Positions 1,360-19,295 of a DNA stretch of 24,000 nt are shown piece after piece (within the stretch, counting starts at the first letter, position 1; each line of letters opens with the position of its first letter). The stretch covers positions 281,376 through 305,375 of the forward strand of contig CAWIGF010000003.1 of the NCBI GenBank assembly GCA_963835585.1, read 5' to 3'. The DNA is from an uncultured Candidatus Woesearchaeota archaeon. GTDB lineage: Archaea; Nanobdellota; Nanobdellia; Woesearchaeales; UBA10107. Under the pieces are notes generated by a model. That model did no database searches. It was not told where the DNA came from and saw nothing but the letters and a program-made list of their open reading frames with translations. Position numbers and translations under genes: made by a program.

Positions 1360-3069
1360 TTATGCTATCATTATGCCTGTAAAAAAAACAGCGCATAAGA
1401 GAAAGACATAACTGCCTGCTGTGCTGAGTCTCCAGAGGAAAAGCGAGCCCGAACTGGAATCACTGATTTCTTTTTTCTTTATATCGTCAAGTGATAAATA
1501 TGAGTTCCAAAGAAAAATGCTATTTACTATAATATAAAAGAAAATCCAAATAAAGATAGTATAATACTCTGAGTTCAAAACCGGGAAATGGCCACTGCTT
1601 ATTGTTAATCCAAGCATGCCTAAATAAACCAAAAAGACAAATGCGTTAAACTTAATCAACGTAACATAAGATTTGGAGAATTTATCTTTTATGGCACCGG
1701 TGGGCTGCCAGACCAATGGTTTTTTTATTATGTTTAAAATGACAGAGTATGCACAGCTGTTAGCATGCGCTGTTCTGGCGATAATTGTGCCGTATTTGAC
1801 CTTTGAAATTCTGAACAGCGGCAGCACTACGAAACCAAATATGAGAAAAGGGAGGAACGGCAGAGCGTGCACAAGGCTTATGAATTTAAAGTTCCAAAAA
1901 AGCAGTACAAATACCTGAAATGACATGAGTACAGCGAATGCATAACTCACATAATACAAAAATCCAGAAATGAAGCATAATTTCTGTGAATTTGTGAGTT
2001 TTGATTTCCAGAACTCAGGATAAAATAAAAGGCTCATGTTGCCGCTGCACCATCTATTTTGCTGGTGGAAATATGCATGCATGTTTTCTGGACACAGGCC
2101 AATTGCAAGAATAATTGGGATGTATTTTATTTTCCAGCCATTATTGACTAATTTAATTCCTGTGTGTATGTCCTCGCTGTGCTCAATTTGAATTATGCCT
2201 CCAATGGAATCGAGTGCTTTTCGCCTGTAAATCGCATTTGATCCAACGCAGACTGCCCCGCCAAAATTATCTCTTGAAACCTGAATGATGCGGTAGAACT
2301 CCTCCTGAACACTGCCTGCGCCATATTCAAGTGCTGAACGCTGATGGATATCGTTGTCTGTTTGGAAATATTGCGGTGATTGGACAATAGATACAGTTGC
2401 ATCTTTCATGTATGGAAGAAGCTCTTTTATGAAATCAGGATTGGGAGCGAAGTCAGCATCAAATATTACGATAAATTCTCCATTTGAATTCTCAAACCCA
2501 AATTTGAGATTTCCTGACTTCTTCATGTATCCTTTATTTTCTCTGCTCAAATATGAGAATCCCTTTGATATTGCCAAGGCCTTGTGTTCTTTGTCCCCCT
2601 TGTCGTCAAGTACATACACTTTTTTGTTTTTGTAGTTTATTTTTGATATCGCATGAAATGTTTTTTTGAGAATCTCGGTGCTTTCCCCACAAATGGGAAC
2701 GAAAATATCGACAGATGGCAGTTTCTTTTTTTTGTCCCAGTATTTTTTAATAAATGCATTGTGCTTATCTAAATCAAATGATTTATAAAATAAATTAATG
2801 CCATAGCTGACAAGATAATGTACAGTAAAAATGCCGACAATCGGGGCAATAGTTAACCAATATATTAATTTAAGATTAAAAAAAACAACAAATCCGTAAA
2901 CAACAAAAAGCCAGCATATGATTCCCAGCAAATAAATCGTCCGTACTTTCCATGCATTTTTTATGATATACTTGTATTTATCTATATTTTCCGGTTTAGT
3001 GTTGGCGGATATTCTGCTGTTTAGGCGGACGTTTGAAAAATAATCTTTTAATAGGTTATTGTCATTCAT
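1360..3069 (-). CDS. Family-2 processive beta-glycosyltransferase (cellulose/chitin-synthase-like), membrane-integrated
   Basis: 569 aa. All GT2 processive signature motifs are visible: VLDDKGD, FDADF (DxD), SEDIHTG (TED) and QQNRWCSG (QxxRW). TM helices flank the catalytic domain. Confidence 0.85.
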   Translation of the reverse strand: MNDNNLLKDYFSNVRLNSRISANTKPENIDKYKYIIKNAWKVRTIYLLGIICWLFVVYGFVVFFNLKLIYWLTIAPIVGIFTVHYLVSYGINLFYKSFDLDKHNAFIKKYWDKKKKLPSVDIFVPICGESTEILKKTFHAISKINYKNKKVYVLDDKGDKEHKALAISKGFSYLSRENKGYMKKSGNLKFGFENSNGEFIVIFDADFAPNPDFIKELLPYMKDATVSIVQSPQYFQTDNDIHQRSALEYGAGSVQEEFYRIIQVSRDNFGGAVCVGSNAIYRRKALDSIGGIIQIEHSEDIHTGIKLVNNGWKIKYIPIILAIGLCPENMHAYFHQQNRWCSGNMSLLFYPEFWKSKLTNSQKLCFISGFLYYVSYAFAVLMSFQVFVLLFWNFKFISLVHALPFLPFLIFGFVVLPLFRISKVKYGTIIARTAHANSCAYSVILNIIKKPLVWQPTGAIKDKFSKSYVTLIKFNAFVFLVYLGMLGLTISSGHFPVLNSEYYTIFIWIFFYIIVNSIFLWNSYLSLDDIKKKEISDSSSGSLFLWRLSTAGSYVFLLCAVFFTGIMIA

Positions 3070-3360
3070 TTTACCCCGTACAGATTATTTTGTTATTCAA
3101 GACTGATTGTCATGCATACATTTTGAGGTATATAAATATTAACACTATTGACAATATTCAGAATATACATGATTTTATTTCATCAGAAAAAATGTAATAC
3201 CCCCAACGTGCGGGAAGACTTCGTTCAAAGCACTGTGGTTTATAGCGTCTGTAGCTTGCTTTATACGCATTTATAGACATTCAGACTATTTTAATCTTTT
3301 CTTTTCATTCGTAATTTATTGAAACTCTAAAAAATATTTTTAGAAATTATGATTGTGCAT

Positions 3361-3466
3361 TTTTAAATCGTTTCCCGACCCTGTTCAAGCCGCGACGAGC
3401 TGAAACAATGGCAAGGCCGAGCCTGCCGACCCTACATTTCTTCCCCATATTGACTGCGCCACGGGA
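3361..3466. repeat. Copy 1 of a ~105-nt direct repeat unit in a gene-free island
   Basis: 3361-3381 is identical to 3646-3666 (21/21). 3419-3436 is identical to 3704-3721 (18/18). The 37 nt between these blocks are unrelated in the two copies, and about 30 nt of partial similarity follows. The offset is exactly 285 bp. Confidence 0.8.
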
Positions 3467-3645
3467 GAGAAACCTGGCAAAATGTTTCATGCCTAAACGG
3501 CCTAAATTTCGCCACTGTCCTTTGAAAAATGCATTTCACGGCCTAAATTCGATTTAGATAATAACAACATACCTCTTTGCTATCATTAGGGCGGAGCAGG
3601 CCGTAGCTAGGCCGATGTGTAAAAATTCTATCCTCAAAAAATAAT

Positions 3646-3752
3646 TTTTAAATCGTTTCCCGACCCAAATGAACGCCTAGTTCGCCGAATGTCAGCCGAC
3701 GCAGAGCCTGCCGACCCTACAATTTCTCCATATACTGACCGCGGTCCGGGAC
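3646..3752. repeat. Copy 2 of the ~105-nt direct repeat unit
   Basis: See copy 1. Each conserved block contains CCGACCC (GGGTCGG on the minus strand), giving four copies in total. Confidence 0.8.
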
Positions 3753-3821
3753 CGAGCCATCTCTCTAGAACAAAATCAAAACTAATCAATCATGCATGAA
3801 TGATGCGAAGAAGCAAAGAAA

Positions 3822-4836: not shown

Positions 4837-4887
4837 AAGTGATATAATAATGTTACGATTTTGTCAAATATAATGATTGTAACTTAA

Positions 4888-4917
4888 TAGTAGTAACAAA
4901 TAGAAAGATTTATATAT
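4888..4917 (+). promoter_or_regulatory. Recurrent promoter-like module, copy A (TAGTAGTAACAAA-N-AAAGATTTATATAT), orphan
   Basis: It shares the motif TAG-W-AGTWACAAA plus a TATA box with 5246-5274 (+), 18098-18127 (+) and 19021-19052 (-). No ORF of 60 aa or more lies downstream. Confidence 0.4.
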
Positions 4918-5086
4918 CTGTACTATTCTCGTAAAGCCACCAGTATCAGGAAAACCTTGCAAAAAATGAAAAATCGTGCACAAGTTGCACGTGAACAACT
5001 AACCACAAAAAAATAAAACGGCCGTAAAAGATGCACACAAGGTTTGTAGTAGCAAAACAGGATTCTTAGGTTCAAGGGAAGTTTAA

Positions 5087-5168: not shown

Positions 5169-5245
5169 ATATAGACGTCTTTTAAGGCATTCTTGGACGA
5201 GTTTTGTATATAAAGCTTGTTGCCCGTAATAATGTAGTTACTTAC

Positions 5246-5274
5246 TAGTAGTTACAAAACGAAAGGTTTATATA
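5246..5274 (+). promoter_or_regulatory. Recurrent promoter-like module, copy B, upstream of the 5326 gene
   Basis: TAGTAGTTACAAAACGAAAGGTTTATATA. It is preceded by a second GTAGTTAC half-site (5234-5241). Confidence 0.45.
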
Positions 5275-5325
5275 GTGGTATTACTTATAATATATTCTGA
5301 AAAACTCGCATATGAAACAGGTAAA

Positions 5326-8998: not shown

Positions 8999-9093
8999 TG
9001 GACCCGCCCGGATTCGAACCGGGGACTCCCACCACGTCAAGGTGATGTCATAACCATTGTCCGCCATGATTGGTGGCTCTAGACCACGGGTCC
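8999..9093 (-). tRNA. tRNA-Val (anticodon GAC) with a ~21-nt insertion in the D-loop (non-canonical intron)
   Basis: Fold: GGACCCG-UG-GUCU-AG[AGCCACCAAUCAUGGCGGACA]AUGGUUA-UGAC-A-UCACC-UUGACGU-GGUGG-GAGUC-CCCGG-UUCGAAU-CCGGG-CGGGUCC-A. The anticodon arm, T arm and acceptor stem are unambiguous. The insert boundaries are approximate. Confidence 0.75.
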
Positions 9094-10128
9094 TTTTATC
9101 TTAAAAGGTAGAATAGCATTCCTATATAAGTCTTTTTGATAGTACTGTGTAACTTCATGCCGATATATGGTTTTATTTTCAAAAAATCGCAAATAGAACC
9201 GAACGATGTGTCTGAGATTTGAACTTCCTACTTTTCTGAAGTAATTTAAAATATTCTCACCCTTGTTTGTTCCAATTTGGGTCTCATCTTTTGATACATA
9301 ACTGAATAAGTCATGCTTGTCTGATATTTGTTTTACTTGCCGGATTAGATTTTTATTATGAGATGTGAAAACAATACAAAATTGGGAGCCATCTCTTCCT
9401 CTGCGAGAAATCGATCCATCAGTATCAATAAGCCCCCTTAGACAGGCTAGTGATAATTTAGAACTTTGTAATATGCTTTTAGGGATCAACGTGTTATTCC
9501 TGATTTTATCCCCATATTCTATTCCAAATTTGTCGTGTAGGAACATACAGAAATTTTTTGAAGAAATCGTAAGATACAATGTATTTCTAGTTTTATCATT
9601 TTCTTTTAAGATGTGTGCATCTATTCCAAAAATATCAAAAATTAATTTTTGAAGGTAGTTGAAATACGGCAAGTCATATCTGGCATCTCCCGAGATTTTA
9701 AGAAAGTATTTTGTTAAGGTTCCATCTCCTAAGTGCGCTCCAATGAACTCTGCAAGTCGTTCATCAAGGATGGGTATTTTAATCTGTTTTGCGTTCGAAT
9801 AGTGGAATTTTGATATGCCTTTTTTTCTCCATTCAACTAGTTCTCTTTTGTATTTTCTTAGCAATGTTTTTGCTCCTTTTTGTCCGCCAATGCGTTTCCC
9901 CCAATTTTCTGGCAGATAAGATGCTTCAAAATCTTTTTCTTTCTTATGAGATAATTTCAAAAGTTTTTCAAATATTTCCTTGGGCAGCAGCATATTTTCT
10001 TGAAAATAATTCTTTAGGGTTGGGTATGGAATTTGCAACCGTTGAGCAACAGTATTCAAAGAATTATGTTTTTGCATTGTTGCAGCAATTAATTTACGTT
10101 GTTCTCCTTTTTTTAGCTTCACCCTCAT
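9079..10128 (-). CDS. Free-standing double-motif LAGLIDADG homing-endonuclease-like protein with N-terminal HTH
   Basis: Two LAGLIDADG motifs: LAEFIGAHLGDGTL and LACLRGLIDTDGSI. The N-terminal NSLNTVAQRLQIPYPTLKNYF is HTH-like. The last 4 codons plus the stop codon overlap the 5' 15 nt of tRNA-Val. Confidence 0.8.
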   Translation of the reverse strand: MRVKLKKGEQRKLIAATMQKHNSLNTVAQRLQIPYPTLKNYFQENMLLPKEIFEKLLKLSHKKEKDFEASYLPENWGKRIGGQKGAKTLLRKYKRELVEWRKKGISKFHYSNAKQIKIPILDERLAEFIGAHLGDGTLTKYFLKISGDARYDLPYFNYLQKLIFDIFGIDAHILKENDKTRNTLYLTISSKNFCMFLHDKFGIEYGDKIRNNTLIPKSILQSSKLSLACLRGLIDTDGSISRRGRDGSQFCIVFTSHNKNLIRQVKQISDKHDLFSYVSKDETQIGTNKGENILNYFRKVGSSNLRHIVRFYLRFFENKTIYRHEVTQYYQKDLYRNAILPFKIKGPVV

Positions 10129-10230: not shown

Positions 10231-10764
10231 TCATACACTCAGCATATCTTTCGGTAATTTTTTGAGTTTTGGTTTCTTGATATCTTTGTATCTTTCTTTT
10301 ATCGCGGTAAAGTCGTTGTTCTTGATCTTTGTTAGAATCCAGATGTACTCAAACTGATCTGGATAGAACGGCATATATTCTTCATTTTCATATCTATTGA
10401 TGTTTTCGTCTATTGCGCCGTTTGAGAAATAATAATCTTTGGCAATCTTGATGTTGCCTTTCTTTTTTATGTCGATGTAATCGGATCTTTTTAATGATTC
10501 TTCACCAAGCATTCGCACGATTTTTATTTCGATATTTTCAGTATTTTCGTATATGGTGAGATTCCCTATTTCAATTTGTCTGTTGGACATTATTTTTTTA
10601 CCGTTGCCAGTAACGAATATGACTCCATTGTCATAGACTATTTTTGATACTTCTTCGGCGAGATTGCGATTATGTTTATTTACAGCATGGACAAATGTGC
10701 TATATGTTCCTATTGCTGCAGAAAGTCCAAGACATCCATAAATGGCAAGCTTCTTTAAATTCAT
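10231..10764 (-). CDS. Hypothetical N-terminally anchored/secreted protein, 177 aa
   Basis: Start moved to the internal ATG (MNLKKLAIYGCLGLSAAIGTYSTFVHA..., signal/anchor-like). The upstream part of ORF 10231..10995 overlaps the 232-aa gene. TATA-like ATTTATATCC lies about 25 nt upstream of 10764. Confidence 0.55.
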   Translation of the reverse strand: MNLKKLAIYGCLGLSAAIGTYSTFVHAVNKHNRNLAEEVSKIVYDNGVIFVTGNGKKIMSNRQIEIGNLTIYENTENIEIKIVRMLGEESLKRSDYIDIKKKGNIKIAKDYYFSNGAIDENINRYENEEYMPFYPDQFEYIWILTKIKNNDFTAIKERYKDIKKPKLKKLPKDMLSV

Positions 10765-10813
10765 GAAAGCGAAAAATAAAACTTGGATATAAATGTGTTG
10801 TTGAGAGAAGTAA

Positions 10814-11512
10814 TTATTCAACGAGTTGTTTTGAAAGCTTTCGTGTCTTTGGCGCTCCGCGTACCCCACGAACAAGATAGTAGCCAAAGTACAAGAGCCT
10901 GTCGTAAACGTAGAAATCCGAGTCGTAGTTGAGACTCCTGAGCCACAAAAGGCGAGCAAATGGCTTGTCTTGTTTTTGAGTGTAATCTTTGTCAACGGTC
11001 AATATAGGAACTTCTTTGATGCCATAGTCCTTCAGGAATTTTCCGTATGCTTTTGCACTGTCATTCAGCGAGAAGTTTGATAAAGGATGATCGGCGAGTG
11101 CATCGACAGAGATGTTCTTGATGGTGCTTCGTGGAAGCAAAAGAACACCGTTCTTTTTTCCGTCTGCTGTTGCAAGTTGCCGCAGCTTGTCAGCTTCGAC
11201 ATAGAATTCTTTTCCGTTTCGATGTGCATTTGTCGCTTCACTTGGCTTCTTGAGGATTGGGTTGTGTTTGCCATCAACAACAAGAATGTTGTCTAGTTCT
11301 TTTGGCATGTACAGGAATCCTTCCTGCACATAGCTTCCATTTTGGGAGACATCGTGTTTTGATCCTAATGCTATTCTTGCTTGTGCGAGTTGCTGCGTTG
11401 TTGTTTGAGCATACCCTGCTTTGTTGAGAACAACGAGCGCTGTATCGAATACATTCTGCTCTGTTGCGATTGTGACGTTTTTCTTTCCAATTTTGTATGT
11501 TGCTGTAATCAT
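10814..11512 (-). CDS. Hypothetical cytoplasmic protein, 232 aa, last gene of the surface operon
   Basis: Its ATG is 3 nt after the giant gene's stop. It has no signal peptide or TM helix and no motif I recognise. Confidence 0.6.
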   Translation of the reverse strand: MITATYKIGKKNVTIATEQNVFDTALVVLNKAGYAQTTTQQLAQARIALGSKHDVSQNGSYVQEGFLYMPKELDNILVVDGKHNPILKKPSEATNAHRNGKEFYVEADKLRQLATADGKKNGVLLLPRSTIKNISVDALADHPLSNFSLNDSAKAYGKFLKDYGIKEVPILTVDKDYTQKQDKPFARLLWLRSLNYDSDFYVYDRLLYFGYYLVRGVRGAPKTRKLSKQLVE

Positions 11513-11515
11513 TTT

Positions 11516-14500
11516 TTATTGCCAGATCTTTCTTATTCCCAAGAATAGCAATAAACCTATTACAACTGTTGCGATGCTTACTCCTACACCAACTGGGACT
11601 GATGGTGTTCCGTGTGCTATCTCTCCTGATATTTTGATTACGCCGTTGGCTACTTGCTGAGGCACTGAAGGCGTGCTGACTAACGGAGTTGCAGTAGGCT
11701 CTGTCATGAACAACTTCAAATTGACGTTCGTATTCTGGTCAGGCTGTTCATAATTGACTCCAAGGTTCGTTACGAGCAATTGTCTATCCTTTACATTGAA
11801 ATTGTAAACATCATTCAGGTATCCTGTCCTTGTAGCATCTGAAGGACTTAGACGCAACATTACTTCGTTGCCTGTTCCTATTTTGTCCACAAGCAGGCTG
11901 TAAGTTGTCCCTTGGTATACGAACATGATGGTATCTATTTCACGTATAGATTTTGTCAATGGATTCTCCTGGGTTATGTTCCACAAGTAGTGCTGTGGCG
12001 AGACTATGGTAGGATTGTTGACTGAATTAAGCAAGCCTCCACCTGAAGATGATTCTGGCAATATCATTGGTTGCACATCGACATTAGTCTCTGTTGCGTT
12101 TGCTGAAAGCCCGATGTTATCGGTGACTTTCAGAGTGACGGTGTATCTTTCTATGGCCGTATATGAGTGAGGTACTGATGAATGCGAAGAATTCAATAAA
12201 TTAGTTCCATCCCCGAATGTCCAACTGTAAATAAGAGGACCATTTGCGTCACTTACTGTTGGCGTGAACACAATGTCCGCTGGATAGATTGTGCTTGGTG
12301 CGTAACTGAAACTTACAACTGGTGACTGTGGTGGTATGCCATTGACAGGTCCTGTGTATGTCACATTGTTGATTGTCATGTTGCCGCTGACCAAATTTCC
12401 GTTTGACACGTTAGCATTGGTGAAAACAACTCCCGTTGCTGTCGTGTTGTCAATGAACGAATTTGTCGCGTTGACATTGTTCAAGTTTGAGTTGGTGATT
12501 GTTGAATTTACTGAAACAACATTCACAAGCGTATCGTTTATGACCGTCGAATTTTCTATGTCGCTGCCAGTTACCTGTGAATTTTGGACAGTGCTTCCTG
12601 AAATGGTGCTGCTTGCAATTGTCGATGAGGAGACATTGCTGTCCGATACCGTTGAATTTGTAATTGTTGATGAATATATGTTGCTATTATCTGAAATGGT
12701 TGAGTTCGAAATTTGTGAGTTGTTGACTGAACTGCCGTCTATTGAGCTTCCTATGATTGTTGAACTTTCCGTTACGCTTGAACCATTTGTTATGTTCGAC
12801 TGGCTTACAGTTGAATCTTGTACTGCTGAGTTGTTTACTAACGAGTCGATTACGTGTGAATCATTGATATTAGCTCCTGAAAGGTAATCGTTGATTATTG
12901 TCGAGTATGTGGCATTTGAATTAAGCACAGTCGAATTTGTTATTGTCGAACCTGTGGTTACGCTGTTCATAACTGTTGAAGGGTCTATTACTTCATTGAG
13001 GCAATTGTACGATGGTTCATTTTCATAAATAGAACCTATAATTGTGCAATTGAAGAGGCTGTTTGCAATAACCATTGATCCTCCTAAGACTGTTGAAATA
13101 TTTATACTTGTTATTACATTTGCAGTTGAATCATTTATTCCTGATTGCGAATCTATAGCAACGCTAGTGATTTGATATGAGGCGTTTGCTGGGTAATATA
13201 CGCTGTTGATTGTTGAATTGAAGATGTTGTTTGTAACATTAACAGGCGGGATTACAACAGTTCCGTTGTTCTGCAGTGTCGTGAAAGAGAATGGTCCTGC
13301 TGTCGAGCAGTTGCTGATAAGATTTACATTGCATGCAGTTATGTTGTAGCTGTATGTTGTTGCATTCAAGAGTGCGAGAGGGATTACGCTGAATGAAGTT
13401 CCTGCTTGGTTGAATGTTCTGACTCCGAATAGATTAAGCGTGCTATTTGCCAAAATATCTGTGTTCCAACCTATTATTACAGAACTATTCGTGATTGAGG
13501 AGTTTGTGACGTTTGATATCACTGGTGCTGCGGTGCTGTTTGTCATGTTTATTGGCGGAATAACAATACTTCCATTGTTGTTCAATGTCGTGAACGAGAA
13601 CGGCCCTGCTATTGTGCAGTTGTTGTATATGTTGCATGCTGTTATGTTGTAATTATATGTTGTTGAGTTTACAAGTCCAGGCACGAAAACTGAACTATAT
13701 TGAGTTGTGTCATTAGTGAATGTCCCGACTCCGAATATGTCCAATGTGCTGTTAGTTATCTCGCTTGTCGCCCAATCCAAAGTGACTGAATCGTTTGTAG
13801 CAGTGACGTTAGATAATACGATGAATGGTGTCGAAGTGTCGTTGCCTGGCGGTATAACCACCGATCCGTTATTGTTAAGTGTGGTGAACTGGAATGGGCC
13901 TGCGGATGAGCAGTTGATGTACATGTTGCATGCCGTTATGTTGTAATAATATGTTGTCGAATTTGTAAGATTGCTAACTGGAACCGAGTATGATGTTCCT
14001 GAGACAAAAGTAAGTCCATTCAATACTAAAGTACTGTTGGTTGCTTCATTTGTCGTCCAGTTGATAATTGCAGATTCATTTGTTATATCAGAGACATTTA
14101 CATTTGAGATTACTGGCGCCGAAGTATCATTTACAGGTGGAATTACGACTGCTGTACTGTTGTAAGTGTAGATTGCAGTTACAGCTCCATTGCCGTTTAC
14201 ACTGATGTTCGTGGTTTGCGAATTAGGACTTGTAACGCTTACGTTTCCTGTAGTGTTCCATGAATCGAACACGTAGCTTGCGTTCAATGGATTATATGTT
14301 ACCGTGTAGTTTCCTGAATAAACTACGCTTGGTGTTGTATTTGGAAGACTCATTAACAAAGACTCTGGTGTTATGATGCCGTTGAGAATCACAGTGACAT
14401 TGAACGTGACACTTCCTATATCTGAAGGATTGCTTGCGTTAGTGTCAATTCCATCGAATGAAACTGAATACAAAGAAAGAGGAGGTCCTGGTATAGGAAC

Positions 14501-16735
14501 TACGATTACACTTTGCGTTGCTGATGTGCCGCTGACTCCTTCTGCGTCAGTCGCTGTTAGCGTTACATTGTATGTGCCGTTAACCAAATACTGATGAGTC
14601 GGATTTTGCAGGTTTGATGTGCTTCCGTCCCCGAAATTCCATGTCCAATTTGTGATTGCATAGGGTGAAGATGAAGTGTCCGTGAAGTTAAGAGTGTCAT
14701 TTACATTCACTGAAGAGCCATGGAGATATGCGAAACCTTGGATTGAGATATTGAAATTGGCAACTACATTATCGTAAGTGTAGATTGCAGTTACAGCTCC
14801 ATTGCCGTTTACACTGATGTTCGTGGTTTGCGAATTAGGACTTGTAACGCTTACGTTTCCTGTAGTATTCCATGAGTCAAACACGTAGCTTGAGTTCAAT
14901 GGAGTGTACGTTACTGTGTAGTTTCCAGGATATACACCTGTTGCAGTGACTGGAAGAGGTGTCTCATTGGTAATTATTGTGTCGACCCCATTTACGACAG
15001 CTGTAAATCCGCTGAACGTGATGTTTCCAAGATTAGTTGGATTTGTGTCAGCTCCGTTGAATGAGACTGAAAATGTGGAAGGAGCAGGCATAGGAACAAC
15101 AAGAACTGTCTGCGTTGCTGATGTGTTGCTGACTCCATCTGAGTCAGTTACAGTAAGGTCGATGTTGTATGTTCCAGGAGTCGAGTATTGATAAGTTGGA
15201 TTTTGTGACGTTGATATATTTCCGTCTCCGAAATCCCACAATCGGCTTGCTATGTTGTCGTATGAATAAGAATTATCCGTGAAGTTAAGAGTCTGATTTA
15301 CAAAAACCTGATAGACTGGAAGAGGAGGTGCTCCTGAAAGTGAAATAGTGAAATTAGCGATTGGAGCTATGTCATTGACTGTGATTTGCTGCGGTACTGG
15401 AGCAAATCCAACTCCGTCAGAGTCAGTTACCATAAGTGTTACTGGATATGTCCCGTTCTTCAAGTAGGTATGAGTAGGATTTGTTTGATTTGATGTCTGT
15501 CCATCGCCGAAGTTCCATAACTGTGAGACGATCGGATCAAGCGGCGTTCCTGGAGTCGAAAGATCAGTGAACGTGATACTTTGATTCTCTGTTATCGTTG
15601 TCGCGCTTTGCGTGAACGCTGTGTTCGGAGCTACATCACTGACCTGCACATAGGTTATATTACTTGCACTCACACCATCAGTGTCAGTTATGGTAAGATT
15701 GATTGCGTATGTTCCTTTCAAGAGGAATGTGTATGAAGGCGAAACTGTATTTCCGAAGACAGTTCCGTTCGAGAATGACCATACATACGTCAATGGCAAA
15801 TCATAGCCTGTCGATAATGCTCCGTTGAATGTTACTAGTTGATTTTCAAGCGATGTCTGGTTCGCTCCTGCATTTGCGATTGGAGGTATATCATTTACAA
15901 TAATGTTTTGTATACTTGAATTTGTAACGCCGTCAGAATCAGTTGAAGTAAGATTGATTGTGTATGTTCCGTTCTTCAAGTAAACGTGATTAGGATTTTG
16001 CAATGCTGAGGAACTTCCATCTCCAAATACCCAATTCCATGCAACTATTGTATCATAACCATGAGATAAGTCAGTGAAATTGACCTGAGCTCCTTCGTTT
16101 ACTGGATTTGGTGTGAAACTGAAGTTTGCGACTGGAGCTATATCAGAGATAGTGGCAGTAGTGCTTACTGTTGATGATCCGTTGTCAGAATCGGTAGCTG
16201 TGAAAGTTACTGTGTATGTTCCGTTCTTCAAGTAAACGTGATTAGGATTTTGCAATGCTGAGGAACTTCCATCTCCGAATGTCCAGTTGTACGAGACAAT
16301 TGTATCGCCATCGACAGGATCTGATGCTGTTCCGATGAATTTTATTGATTGATTTTCAATTCCATTGTAAGGTCCGTTTGTAATGGATGTCACAGGCAGT
16401 GCGTTCTGGATCGTTACCTGGCTTGAGCCCTGCAAGGCGCTTGGTATGTTGATTATTTTTCCGCCAACCATTGCAACTGTCGAGGCAGACCATACTTCGC
16501 ATTTCCATACATCACCATGAGTGGTATATGCCGAACTTAATGTTGAACCGATTGTGTCAGAGAATAAAACGCCGTTCTTGAACCATTTGTACACGTATTG
16601 TGAACCTGAAGGTGAGCAGCTCAAATCCTGATTGTGGAATGGAGTGCTTGGCGTTATTGTTACGCTGAGTGCCGCAACAGAAGCCAAACTAATCAAAAAT
16701 AAGAATACTATTGAAAGTAATTTTGTTTGCTTCAT
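11516..16735 (-). CDS. Giant (1739 aa) mosaic cell-surface protein: signal peptide, Ig-like domain, 7 PKD domains, 2 B-repeat-like modules, 3 Fn3-like domains, S/T/N-rich 5-residue-repeat region, C-terminal TM anchor
   Basis: Start moved to MKQTKLLSIVFLFLISLASVAALS (signal peptide) at 16735. PKD signatures of the type WxFGDG...NPxHxY...GTYxVxLTxTDxxG recur seven times. The Fn3-like pattern is ISNVxVSxITNxSAxIxW...TTYxYNITACN...GPFxFTT. The C-terminus is GVGVSIATVVIGLLLFLGIRKIWQ. Confidence 0.9.
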   Translation of the reverse strand: MKQTKLLSIVFLFLISLASVAALSVTITPSTPFHNQDLSCSPSGSQYVYKWFKNGVLFSDTIGSTLSSAYTTHGDVWKCEVWSASTVAMVGGKIINIPSALQGSSQVTIQNALPVTSITNGPYNGIENQSIKFIGTASDPVDGDTIVSYNWTFGDGSSSALQNPNHVYLKNGTYTVTFTATDSDNGSSTVSTTATISDIAPVANFSFTPNPVNEGAQVNFTDLSHGYDTIVAWNWVFGDGSSSALQNPNHVYLKNGTYTINLTSTDSDGVTNSSIQNIIVNDIPPIANAGANQTSLENQLVTFNGALSTGYDLPLTYVWSFSNGTVFGNTVSPSYTFLLKGTYAINLTITDTDGVSASNITYVQVSDVAPNTAFTQSATTITENQSITFTDLSTPGTPLDPIVSQLWNFGDGQTSNQTNPTHTYLKNGTYPVTLMVTDSDGVGFAPVPQQITVNDIAPIANFTISLSGAPPLPVYQVFVNQTLNFTDNSYSYDNIASRLWDFGDGNISTSQNPTYQYSTPGTYNIDLTVTDSDGVSNTSATQTVLVVPMPAPSTFSVSFNGADTNPTNLGNITFSGFTAVVNGVDTIITNETPLPVTATGVYPGNYTVTYTPLNSSYVFDSWNTTGNVSVTSPNSQTTNISVNGNGAVTAIYTYDNVVANFNISIQGFAYLHGSSVNVNDTLNFTDTSSSPYAITNWTWNFGDGSTSNLQNPTHQYLVNGTYNVTLTATDAEGVSGTSATQSVIVVPIPGPPLSLYSVSFDGIDTNASNPSDIGSVTFNVTVILNGIITPESLLMSLPNTTPSVVYSGNYTVTYNPLNASYVFDSWNTTGNVSVTSPNSQTTNISVNGNGAVTAIYTYNSTAVVIPPVNDTSAPVISNVNVSDITNESAIINWTTNEATNSTLVLNGLTFVSGTSYSVPVSNLTNSTTYYYNITACNMYINCSSAGPFQFTTLNNNGSVVIPPGNDTSTPFIVLSNVTATNDSVTLDWATSEITNSTLDIFGVGTFTNDTTQYSSVFVPGLVNSTTYNYNITACNIYNNCTIAGPFSFTTLNNNGSIVIPPINMTNSTAAPVISNVTNSSITNSSVIIGWNTDILANSTLNLFGVRTFNQAGTSFSVIPLALLNATTYSYNITACNVNLISNCSTAGPFSFTTLQNNGTVVIPPVNVTNNIFNSTINSVYYPANASYQITSVAIDSQSGINDSTANVITSINISTVLGGSMVIANSLFNCTIIGSIYENEPSYNCLNEVIDPSTVMNSVTTGSTITNSTVLNSNATYSTIINDYLSGANINDSHVIDSLVNNSAVQDSTVSQSNITNGSSVTESSTIIGSSIDGSSVNNSQISNSTISDNSNIYSSTITNSTVSDSNVSSSTIASSTISGSTVQNSQVTGSDIENSTVINDTLVNVVSVNSTITNSNLNNVNATNSFIDNTTATGVVFTNANVSNGNLVSGNMTINNVTYTGPVNGIPPQSPVVSFSYAPSTIYPADIVFTPTVSDANGPLIYSWTFGDGTNLLNSSHSSVPHSYTAIERYTVTLKVTDNIGLSANATETNVDVQPMILPESSSGGGLLNSVNNPTIVSPQHYLWNITQENPLTKSIREIDTIMFVYQGTTYSLLVDKIGTGNEVMLRLSPSDATRTGYLNDVYNFNVKDRQLLVTNLGVNYEQPDQNTNVNLKLFMTEPTATPLVSTPSVPQQVANGVIKISGEIAHGTPSVPVGVGVSIATVVIGLLLFLGIRKIWQ
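12353..12970 (-). repeat. About 40 tandem 5-residue (15-bp) units inside the giant gene
   Basis: DSHVI DSLVN NSAVQ DSTVS QSNIT ... NSTIS ... SSTIT NSTVS DSNVS SSTIA SSTIS GSTVQ NSQVT GSDIE NSTVI. V or I falls at every fifth position. Confidence 0.7.
14162..15367 (-). repeat. Tandem duplication of a (PKD + B-repeat-like) two-domain module, period 612 bp
   Basis: 14162-14254 is identical to 14774-14866 (93/93 by direct reading), with high similarity beyond. The protein segment FDSWNTTGNVSVTSPNSQTTNISVNGNGAVTAIYTY is repeated exactly. Confidence 0.85.
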
Positions 16736-16739
16736 GTGC

Positions 16740-18002
16740 TTATTTTCCGGAAAATATGTCGAACAGATTTCTCCAGCTAAGTCCGACTGTTCCTTCAGGA
16801 CCTGTCTGACTTGAATGTATGTCTGCATCTGTTCCCATCCCATATGCAACATCAACATCAAAACGTAAATCTTTTGCCCAATTGCCCAAGAATGCAAAGT
16901 CGTGGTTTAATGCAGCGTGGTATCTTGTGAAATTATTTCCTTCTCCGGTGAAATTGTCTGCTCCACCGCGAAGCTCTGTCCCATCGTGAAGAATTACTCG
17001 TGCTTCCAGATTAAGGTCTTGCTCGGAAACTGGATATTCGATTCCCATGACATGACCTGCTCCTGTTCTGTCCAGTATTTGTGCAGTGATCCTTGTTTTT
17101 GTTGTGTTAGTATTGTAATCAGTTCCAAACACAAGGTTTAGTCCATTTCCTTTTTGATCGTAAGGTCCGACGCTTGGAGCGTTTCCATCAGTGTTTTGCC
17201 AATTCCATCCGCCAAGCACAAATGGTGTTATACCATTTCCGACGTCAATGCCTGCACCGAGCGCAGCATCTCCTGCAAGAAGACTGAGCGTTTGTTTGTC
17301 TCCATCGACATCCAAGCTTTGTTTTGGCGCAAATTCGCCGTTAAGTGAAAGTATGATTGATATGTCGTCCTTTTTAACAACAGGTCGTGCATATACTTTG
17401 AAATCAGGTCCGTTGTTTGTTGCGACTGACTTGAATGGAGCGGCTCCGCTTCCTTCAATTGGTTGTGAATTTATTTGCGAATATGTCCATCCTGCGAATC
17501 CGCCGTCTTCCATTGTGAAATCAGAAATATTTTTTGCAGTTGCAGAATTTGATTGTGCAACAACTTTACTCATATCTATGACATTAGGTTCGTAGACTGT
17601 GGGCGCTCCTGCATTTTGCGTGAATGTTACTGGTGCGCCTGTTGCAGATTTTCCGTCAGTTGCGTATGCATTTAGAACTCCTCTCTTAACTCCTCGTATT
17701 TGCGCAGGATTTATTTTGAGAGTGACCTTGCGTCTTGCTTTTGTTTTCTTGATAGGGCTTCCCTTTATTGTATTTCCATGATTAGGTGAGCTTTGATCTC
17801 CATTTAAGATATCTATATATGTAACTGGTTGCGAAGGGGATTTTGGTTGAACATATACAGTGATATTTGATTTATCTGCATGGTATTGAGCATTATCTAT
17901 TGTTGGTTTTGCGTATGCAGAACCTATTGCTAAGAATGTCGCAGTAATTGTTGGTGCGACGTATTTGACACATTTCCCGTACATGTTTCGGATAGTATTC
18001 AT
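16740..18002 (-). CDS. Secreted beta-rich protein (420 aa) with a porin-like C-terminal half; first gene of the surface operon
   Basis: Signal-like N-terminus ...VAPTITATFLAIGSAYA|KP. It has no TM helices. The C-terminal half consists of short amphipathic strands separated by G/N/D turns. Its stop lies 4 nt before the giant gene's ATG. Confidence 0.7.
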   Translation of the reverse strand: MNTIRNMYGKCVKYVAPTITATFLAIGSAYAKPTIDNAQYHADKSNITVYVQPKSPSQPVTYIDILNGDQSSPNHGNTIKGSPIKKTKARRKVTLKINPAQIRGVKRGVLNAYATDGKSATGAPVTFTQNAGAPTVYEPNVIDMSKVVAQSNSATAKNISDFTMEDGGFAGWTYSQINSQPIEGSGAAPFKSVATNNGPDFKVYARPVVKKDDISIILSLNGEFAPKQSLDVDGDKQTLSLLAGDAALGAGIDVGNGITPFVLGGWNWQNTDGNAPSVGPYDQKGNGLNLVFGTDYNTNTTKTRITAQILDRTGAGHVMGIEYPVSEQDLNLEARVILHDGTELRGGADNFTGEGNNFTRYHAALNHDFAFLGNWAKDLRFDVDVAYGMGTDADIHSSQTGPEGTVGLSWRNLFDIFSGK

Positions 18003-18097
18003 TGTTATTCCCCCAACTAATTACACTTTGTTCTAACCAACCCCTCGTACTTGGATATGTTACTCATATATAAATGTTTTCATCAATAGTTATTATG

Positions 18098-19149: not shown

Positions 19150-19295
19150 TGCGGGAGAAGGGATTTGAACCCTCGTAGGGACTAACCCACAGGATATCTT
19201 CCTATGCAATGGTTATCCATCGCCAGGTCTTAAGTTTCGCAGAAACGACTTTCATCATTTCACCTGCGCATTTGACCAGGCTCTGCCACTCCCGC
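19150..19295 (-). tRNA. tRNA-Leu (anticodon UAA), class II, interrupted by two insertions (~27 nt and ~33 nt)
   Basis: Fold: GCGGGAG-UG-GCAG-AGCCUGGUCAA-AUGC-G-CAGGU-[27 nt, 19235-19261]-CUUAAG-[33 nt, 19196-19228]-A-UCCUG-UGGGUUAGUCCCUAC-GAGGG-UUCAAAU-CCCUU-CUCCCGC-A. The gene is 146 nt, versus about 86 nt mature. Boundaries were inferred by restoring a 7-nt anticodon loop. Confidence 0.7.

Follow-up and report, generated by a model that had tools for sequence, protein, structure and literature searches.

The window considered here, a 24-kb stretch of a 681,493-bp contig from a small-genome, Woesearchaeota-like archaeon (DPANN), contains on its minus strand three genes packed head to tail, with spacers of 4 and 3 nucleotides (nt): gene 1, encoding a protein of 420 amino acids (aa), gene 2, encoding a giant protein of 1739 aa, and gene 3, encoding a protein of 232 aa. 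By profile similarity, the gene 3 product is at the family level a homologue of AvpA, the variable protein of an archaeal diversity-generating retroelement (DGR), and gene 3 is most likely an orphaned DGR target, probably frozen, that has come to share a transcription unit with a giant surface protein gene. The elements of the unit are as follows, BRE denoting the transcription factor B recognition element.

18066-18081, minus strand: archaeal BRE+TATA promoter GAAAACATTTATATA; the ATG of gene 1 follows after about 64 nt
16740-18002, minus strand: gene 1, 420 aa, stop codon at 16742-16740
Between genes 1 and 2, minus strand: 4-nt spacer, GCAC
11516-16735, minus strand: gene 2, 1739 aa from the ATG at 16735, stop codon at 11518-11516
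Between genes 2 and 3, minus strand: 3-nt spacer, AAA
10814-11512, minus strand: gene 3, 232 aa, ATG at 11512
10786-10793, minus strand: TATA-like box TTTATATC; the following gene (10231-10764, 177 aa) has its ATG 29 nt further on
10772-10781, minus strand: oligo-T tract TTTTATTTTT, after the TATA-like box TTTATATC

These coordinates bear out the arrangement that an earlier, sequence-only reading of this DNA had described, namely three head-to-tail open reading frames (ORFs) with spacers of these two lengths. A longer gene 2 ORF, initiated at a TTG, extends to 16897 and so into gene 1. Starting from the ATG yields a canonical signal peptide, and this start was also called independently on L011, which together with L001 represents the Logan contigs of run ERR10755942, a short-read assembly from the same sample as the window. 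Promoters and terminators were mapped by a scripted scan for BRE/TATA and oligo-T motifs, chosen because the organism is archaeal and a sigma-70 scanner is unsuited to it. The single TATA-like box previously noted upstream of gene 1 was found to be better than claimed, being a full BRE+TATA consensus composed of a purine-rich BRE-like GAAAAC and the TATA box TTTATATA, and a Shine-Dalgarno-like GGGGG run lies 8-12 nt before the gene 1 ATG. The element at 18066-18081 is the sole BRE/TATA match in the motif map of the minus strand from 19337 to 3659, and no further TTTAWAW was found by motif scan on that strand between 18074 and 10793, where a rough, composition-based estimate gives a chance expectation of about 4-5 per 7.2 kb. 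The same architecture, a purine-rich BRE followed by TTTATA(T/A)A, is also located upstream of AvpA-like genes in related Woesearchaeota. Beyond gene 3, positions 10772-10793 likely combine a terminator with the promoter region of the next gene and so mark the end of the unit. The spacing and motif maps fit a single tricistronic unit, closed after gene 3, in which all three genes would be co-transcribed.

Two further promoter observations were made. A promoter-like element, GTAGTAAC...(A/G)GAAAG(A/G)TTTATATA, is repeated on the plus strand of the window at 4879-4925 and 5237-5283. The same upstream architecture, 'TAGTAAC' plus BRE/TATA, recurs before the AvpA-like genes of loci L005, L003, L012 and L013, and this recurrence suggests a lineage-typical extended promoter in Woesearchaeota contigs.

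What kind of protein does gene 3 encode? It had been described as an unknown cytoplasmic protein, a description that has to be replaced in view of its profile match to AvpA. Two family alignments, A1 (11 sequences) and A4, were used as profiles, and the sole match in the Protein Data Bank (PDB) was 5IOO, AvpA (E=4.5e-8 and 7e-6, respectively). The gene 3 product joins the family profile at E=2e-106. AvpA is an archaeal DGR variable protein that founded a new subclass of C-type lectins (Handa et al. 2016, PMC5006420). It has an internal variable region (VR), a beta5 strand encoded by the initiation of mutagenic homing (IMH) sequence, and a hairpin within the coding sequence of a 46-aa tail (PMC5006420). 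The motifs GxxVVVYAH, HPxxxPFxG and RFxGV are conserved in AvpA-like proteins, which have been proposed to aid symbiosis in nanosized archaea, and the AvpA-like proteins of Woesearchaeota are listed in Table 3 of the same study as 'no DGR' (PMC5006420).

Equivalents of the three motifs were recognized by eye on A1 (ILVVDGKH for GxxVVVYAH, HPLSNFSL for HPxxxPFxG and LVRGV for RFxGV), only the RFxGV-like one being aligned to AvpA by HMMER. The RFxGV-like motif RVRGV is encoded by the IMH, as in AvpA (PMC5006420), and A1 displays a hypervariable patch rich in Y, D, S, F, G and N directly before the conserved RVRGVR. The gene 3 product contains neither a signal peptide nor a transmembrane (TM) segment. 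The family resembles AvpA and the AvpA-like proteins of Nanoarchaeota and Woesearchaeota in profile similarity, in length (about 230-290 aa), in lacking a signal peptide, and in a VR placed close to the C-terminus without reaching it, whose last part is an R(F/V)xGV strand encoded by the IMH. A C-type-lectin fold is predicted for the gene 3 product from this similarity together with the DGR context described below. In fold subclass and internal VR, the family is of the archaeal AvpA type and differs from Mtd and TvpA, which have C-type lectins of the formylglycine-generating enzyme type (PMC5006420).

About 30 Woesearchaeota and Pacearchaeota loci that hold members of the gene 3 family were examined; at least 14 of them are distinct contexts in which the upstream sequence extends for at least 1 kb. 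Relatives were found as 11 entries in the protein collection, as 6 genome loci in metagenome-assembled genomes (MAGs) of Woesearchaeota and Pacearchaeota, and as 20 metagenome loci; none was found in viral contigs. The loci closest to gene 3 come from MAGs of the same two groups. In these relatives the hypervariable patch is repeated directly a few hundred bases downstream, with mismatches only at adenines of the downstream copy, the template repeat (TR). Mismatches at adenines versus other bases numbered 12 versus 0 at L005, 10 versus 0 at L003 and 9 versus 0 at L010. Twelve AvpA-like genes are followed by a TR with adenine-only mismatches and then, just downstream, by an RVT_1 reverse transcriptase (RT), a further likeness to AvpA-like systems. 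At L005, L003 and L012 the VR ends in GTTCGTGGGG and the TR in GTTCGTGGAA, forming the IMH/IMH* pair, and in the relatives a GC hairpin of 5-6 bp with a GAA loop follows the VR (e.g., GCACC-GAA-GGTGC and AGCGCC-GAA-GGCGCT). The relatives' cassettes resemble canonical DGRs (BPP-1 Mtd, Treponema TvpA) in every one of these parts: a target VR, a nearby TR, adenine-specific mismatches, an RT, an IMH that differs from IMH* (GGGG versus GGAA), and a GC hairpin behind the VR. Roughly half of the family lacks a local TR or RT, yet keeps the IMH and the hairpin. In nearly all relatives, whether RT-linked or not, a BRE/TATA promoter belonging to the gene itself lies 25-45 nt before its ATG.

Some loci depart from the simple cassette. 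At L024 (2394-5374), two tandem AvpA-like targets are present, and both VRs match one TR located upstream of a single RT. At L010 (6090-10507), the DGR acts on another target gene, of 255 aa, which contains the VR counted above; the AvpA-like gene of this locus, about 3 kb away, has no TR that matches it. The family therefore includes multi-target and orphan set-ups. The cassette of the closest relative, L005 (6198-7320), contains an RT that is split into two ORFs of 188 and 172 aa at a repeat coding for SLSLSLS, which is due to a frameshift or pseudogenization, or else to an error of assembly; despite the split RT, the 12 differences between its VR and TR are all at adenines.

The copy in the window retains the target part of such a cassette, with the following features.

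10864-10955, minus strand: VR-like segment of gene 3, encoding LWLRSLNYDSDFYVYDRLLYFGYYLVRG, located by alignment with the VR/TR pairs of L005, L003 and L012
10864-10873, minus strand: IMH-like GTTCGTGGGG at the end of the VR, the same sequence as the IMH in the VRs of L005, L003 and L012
10843-10855, minus strand: decayed post-IMH homing hairpin, GCGCC-AAA-GACAC, 3 of 5 pairs

The window VR was found to differ from the near-identical TRs of three relatives at 16 of 29 conserved adenine columns and at 10 of 58 conserved non-adenine columns (Fisher P=4.6e-4). This adenine-biased divergence is the trace that past adenine mutagenesis would be expected to leave, and the encoded region is, as read from its sequence, rich in Tyr. 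A targeted scan of the window detected no TR for the gene 3 VR, and a window-wide scan detected no TR/VR repeat pair of the DGR type anywhere in the 24 kb; the same scanning method recovers TRs for the genes of 12 relatives. No ORF in the window matched an RT profile built from 40 DPANN DGR RTs, no RVT_1 was present among the Pfam-scanned window ORFs, and no RT from the source contig was present among the best 120 of the 7,987 relatives of the L005 RT. The hairpin is also degraded in energetic terms: the 60 nt that follow the IMH fold at -2.8 kcal/mol in the window copy and at -6.6 to -17.2 kcal/mol in 17 relatives, RT-linked and orphan alike. Gene 3 ends about 40 codons before its relatives, so that the C-terminal tail of about 40-46 aa is missing, and it has no promoter of its own, the coding sequence of the giant gene occupying the position where relatives have theirs. 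The ORF is otherwise intact and agrees with the other ten sequences at 28 of 28 fully conserved columns of A1.

Of the parts that make up a complete DGR, the 24 kb contain the IMH, whereas an RT, a TR and a GC-rich hairpin were not found. The window, unlike canonical DGRs, holds the target half only, and the gene 3 copy differs from AvpA in lacking a TR and RT within 24 kb, its own promoter, an intact hairpin and the C-terminal tail. These features indicate a most likely orphaned and probably frozen target, whose VR would be inactive.

A different reading of the same features is that gene 3 remains active as a remote DGR target, rewritten in trans by a TR and RT elsewhere in the genome, so that a hypervariable binder would be co-expressed with the adhesin. 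Both the intact IMH-like GTTCGTGGGG and the adenine bias of the VR substitutions would fit such activity, the retention of IMH and hairpin in the half of the family without local TR or RT suggests trans-acting arrangements, and remote targets have been documented elsewhere (PMC8144416). The decay of the hairpin in the window copy only, the truncated tail and the lack of a TR or RT within 24 kb argue against it, and this reading is considered unlikely.

The sequence-only reading had proposed a dedicated, conserved module whose 420-aa and 232-aa members serve the export, anchoring or maturation of the giant adhesin, and had spoken of a fixed pairing. The geometry of the locus is in its favor: short 4-nt and 3-nt spacers, head-to-tail orientation, a single promoter, and a gene 3 that has no promoter of its own and hence depends on the adhesin transcript. 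Conserved synteny was not observed, however. Across the approximately 30 loci of the 232-aa family, no PKD-profile match was found, the largest ORF was 851 aa, and no recurrent co-occurrence of a giant gene with a partner was detected in the relatives' loci examined. The conserved neighbors of the family are instead the DGR template repeat and the reverse transcriptase, other neighbors being Fic, HepT, MNT-like, ParE-like or housekeeping genes. None of the other AvpA-like genes at these loci lies, like the window copy, in a unit with a giant surface protein gene. Occurrence of the 232-aa family elsewhere without giant neighbors had been named in advance as the outcome that would speak against the module, and this is the outcome that was obtained. 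Gene 3 has lost its DGR machinery, and the locus is therefore not a conserved three-part attachment module. Furthermore, neither partner matches a known export, sortase or maturation family in Pfam or NCBIfam. The dedicated module is largely refuted by the synteny survey and must be regarded as very improbable. The part of the proposal that stands is the packing of the three genes behind one promoter together with a giant adhesion-type protein; dedicated export, anchoring or maturation partners do not.

Nor can a pairing be shown for gene 1. The gene 1 product is probably secreted and beta-rich, judging from its sequence: it contains a probable Sec-type signal peptide, MNTIRNMYGKCVKYVAPTITATFLAIGSAYA|KP, no second hydrophobic segment by hydropathy, and a composition rich in Gly, Ala, Thr and Asn. 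It matched nothing in Pfam, NCBIfam, PHROGs or PADLOC, nothing in the PDB and nothing in viral contigs. No homologue was found in a word-indexed search of 5.8e9 proteins or in an exhaustive phmmer search of 1.84e9 representatives, so that nothing is conserved on this side of the proposed module either. The single-sequence AlphaFold2 (AF2) model was unusable, with a predicted local distance difference test (pLDDT) score of 32. The gene 1 protein has been filed in a junk 90%-identity cluster with unrelated peptides of 30-51 aa, and the query itself is absent from the word-indexed and phmmer results because the cluster representative is an unrelated 51-aa peptide; the negative result is still valid for other clusters. 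Such a cluster hides gene 1 from representative-only searches, a database artefact that is relevant to verdicts of 'no homologue' in general. Gene 1 is an orphan, and fixed pairing therefore cannot be claimed for it. With no homologue of gene 1 and no giant neighbor for the relatives of gene 3, the pairing exists in a single instance.

The available data are best explained by a lineage-specific operon for a probably secreted orphan, a giant protein of adhesin type and an AvpA-like lectin that has been orphaned and is probably frozen; a probability of roughly 0.55 is assigned to this explanation. In this explanation, the one BRE/TATA promoter at 18066-18081 would drive all three genes as a single transcription unit, and the gene 2 product, heavily N-glycosylatable and anchored in the membrane at its C-terminus, would form a stalk built from Ig-like, PKD, Fn3-like and beta-helix-like modules. 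In the relatives, the AvpA-like gene stands alone with a promoter of its own, and the adjacent TR and RT rewrite its adenine-templated positions; here, gene 3 would have been captured behind the giant gene through local rearrangement and would not represent an ancient conserved partnership. The gene 3 start lies 3 nt after the gene 2 stop, and read-through transcription is therefore needed and translational coupling is probable. The Tyr-rich binding site of gene 3 would now be frozen or, at best, rewritten inefficiently in trans. Gene 3 and the adhesin may be functionally linked.

Several points weigh against this explanation. Some concern the loss of diversification: the analysis covered 24 kb of the 681-kb contig, and a TR and RT elsewhere could act in trans; the IMH-like sequence of gene 3 is intact; remote DGR targets are known (PMC8144416); and the hairpin is reported to raise homing efficiency without being strictly required (PMC5006420). 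Others concern the identity of the protein: the gene 3 product alone, without the family profile, gives no AvpA match, and the AF2 family model, built on the 11-sequence alignment, reached a pLDDT of 58.9 and gave no Foldseek match in the PDB at E<=0.001. The remainder concern the unit itself. Weak internal promoters are possible, one candidate being TTTATTGC, which precedes the gene 3 ATG by about 40 nt. The 3-nt coupling could also stem from selection for co-expression, and part of the dedicated-module idea would then return. The short-read assembly (L011, L001) breaks inside the repeat region of gene 2, and the number of PKD and YVFDSW repeats may therefore depend on the assembly.

The arrangement might also carry no function at all. 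Gene 3 would then be a degenerating DGR target, a pseudogene in progress that happens to lie beside a giant gene in a variable region rich in mobile elements. This view would accommodate the presence nearby of an MNT-like nucleotidyltransferase pair and a free-standing LAGLIDADG endonuclease, the Fic, HepT, ParE-like and RT genes that adjoin relatives, and the loss of the 3' tail and hairpin. It accounts poorly for an intact ORF that keeps all 28 conserved columns and extends through the IMH-encoded strand equivalent to AvpA beta5 (PMC5006420), or for a start codon placed exactly 3 nt past the upstream stop and followed by a family-normal N-terminus. A meaningless juxtaposition is accordingly doubtful. 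At the other extreme, gene 3 may be a DGR-evolved binder that was 'retired', the TR, RT and hairpin having been lost after a useful specificity was reached; the frozen lectin, under the adhesin promoter, would act with the giant protein, and possibly with the orphan too, in host recognition. This elaboration is speculative and rather improbable.

The modules of gene 2 are arranged as follows from the N-terminus.

16670-16735, minus strand: signal peptide, hydrophobic segment at aa 3-30 by hydropathy
16406-16666, minus strand: Ig-like N-terminal domain
15098-16405, minus strand: five PKD domains, by Pfam PKD_4 and internal BLAST
14771-15097, minus strand: YVFDSW module 1, by internal BLAST
14501-14770, minus strand: PKD 6, by Pfam PKD_4 and internal BLAST
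14159-14500, minus strand: YVFDSW module 2, by internal BLAST
13247-14140, minus strand: three Fn3-like modules, by internal BLAST and sub-threshold Pfam matches
12356-13243, minus strand: Ser/Thr/Asn-rich pentapeptide-like region, probably beta-helical, by a sub-threshold Pfam match
12068-12352, minus strand: PKD 7, by Pfam PKD_4 and internal BLAST
11666-12058, minus strand: unique C-terminal domain and Thr/Pro linker
11531-11608, minus strand: TM anchor followed by a short basic tail, hydrophobic segment at aa 1710-1739 by hydropathy

The seven PKD domains that had been counted previously were recovered independently by Pfam, in which PKD_4 matched seven stretches (E=8.6e-109, 356 bits against a cut-off of 27), and by BLAST of segments against the whole protein. 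The single C-terminal TM anchor was likewise confirmed by hydropathy, the C-terminus reading ...PVGVGVSIATVVIGLLLFLGIRKIWQ. With a PKD match above the gathering score, a signal peptide and a membrane anchor, the gene 2 product has the composition of a PKD cell-surface protein, and it contains 99 N-X-S/T sequons, or 5.7 per 100 residues. For three other module types, the repeats themselves were found as described and the family assignments were weaker. Three tandem Fn3-like modules are present with about 60% mutual identity by internal BLAST, their assignment being a sub-threshold one in Pfam searches of the isolated region (fn3, 18.9 bits against a cut-off of 25; Pur_ac_phosph_N, 23.6 against 30). 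The 5-residue-repeat region gave a Pentapeptide_4 match that is also sub-threshold (30.9 bits against 38, E=2.8e-7, isolated region). The two YVFDSW modules are 65% identical to each other by internal BLAST, and the InlB B-repeat likeness ascribed to them was not borne out.

Candidate assignments for these stretches were tried and rejected. In a Pfam scan at E<=1, the isolated YVFDSW module matched no B-repeat family, Listeria-Bacteroides/InlB included, and gave only weak matches to the beta-sandwich families SpaA and Filamin. Matches to InlK_D3, LapB and PamR map to PKD-like stretches and are generic, the InlK_D3 match corresponding to PKD 6 and not to a YVFDSW module. The match to PamR, the RbmA-like pilus protein of the candidate phyla radiation (CPR; NCBIfam NF058578), falls on Ig/PKD-like stretches of gene 2 and is weak (E=1.2e-16, 60.5 bits); membership was rejected, since the score is far under the 300-bit cut-off and reflects generic beta-sandwich similarity.

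In general build, gene 2 appears comparable to the giant multi-domain surface proteins or adhesins known from DPANN archaea, e.g. the SPEARE proteins of Nanohaloarchaeota, and to PKD-rich cell-surface proteins of archaea. A signal peptide, tandem PKD/Ig/Fn3 beta-sandwiches, dense N-glycosylation sequons, a Thr/Pro linker and a C-terminal TM segment are common to gene 2 and such proteins. Gene 2 differs from them in containing no protease or nuclease domain, in the order of its modules, and in its YVFDSW modules and C-terminal domain, which have no family assignment. A further difference is that no PGF-CTERM/archaeosortase or other sorting-signal model of NCBIfam matched the gene 2 product at E<=0.1. 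From its domain composition, gene 2 most likely encodes a surface adhesin or cell-envelope protein, and a role in attachment is plausible for a Woesearchaeota-like DPANN archaeon.

What does the locus add to these families? PKD-rich giant surface proteins of DPANN archaea are of an already known kind, as are AvpA-like proteins, including DGR-less ones in Woesearchaeota. The new element is the joining of an AvpA-like gene to the unit of a giant surface protein, in a single instance. The locus provides a testable context for the AvpA family, in that both the diversification machinery and the gene's own promoter have been lost and expression apparently proceeds from an adhesin-like transcript. 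If the co-expression is functional, it would tie the AvpA family to host attachment and show how a hypermutation target becomes fixed. If the retired-binder idea should hold, the AvpA family would be connected by genomic evidence, for the first time, with the machinery by which a DPANN archaeon attaches at its cell surface, and the locus would exemplify the fixation of a DGR product. If the co-expression is not functional, the locus still represents a clean case of DGR decay alongside lineage-specific surface-protein innovation in DPANN. In annotation, 'unknown cytoplasmic protein' should be changed to 'AvpA-like DGR variable protein, orphan', and the label of a three-gene module should not be propagated.

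The neighborhood contains the following further genes.

9079-10128, minus strand: free-standing LAGLIDADG endonuclease, 349 aa
3890-4818, minus strand: pair of an MNT-like nucleotidyltransferase, 174 aa, and a 135-aa partner, overlapping by 4 nt
1360-3069, minus strand: glycosyltransferase of family 2 (GT2), 569 aa

The MNT-like gene and its 135-aa partner look like a toxin-antitoxin pair. The minus strand also carries, at 3345-3800, a tandem pair of non-coding units, each about 285 nt long and ending in GGGTCGGGAAACGATTTAAAAA, with 77% identity between them, in an 800-bp stretch that has no ORFs of at least 80 aa; as RNAs, these units gave no Rfam match, and their fold z-scores of -1.1 and -0.5 were no better than those of shuffles. 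A 'tRNA' with a 4-base anticodon was called by ARAGORN at 8999-9093 on the minus strand, between and overlapping a 176-aa ORF and the LAGLIDADG ORF. At 19150-19295 on the minus strand, Rfam identified, beside a tRNA-Thr, a 146-nt tRNA that ARAGORN missed and whose length suggests an intron-containing archaeal tRNA. The 569-aa glycosyltransferase could serve the glycosylation of surface proteins.

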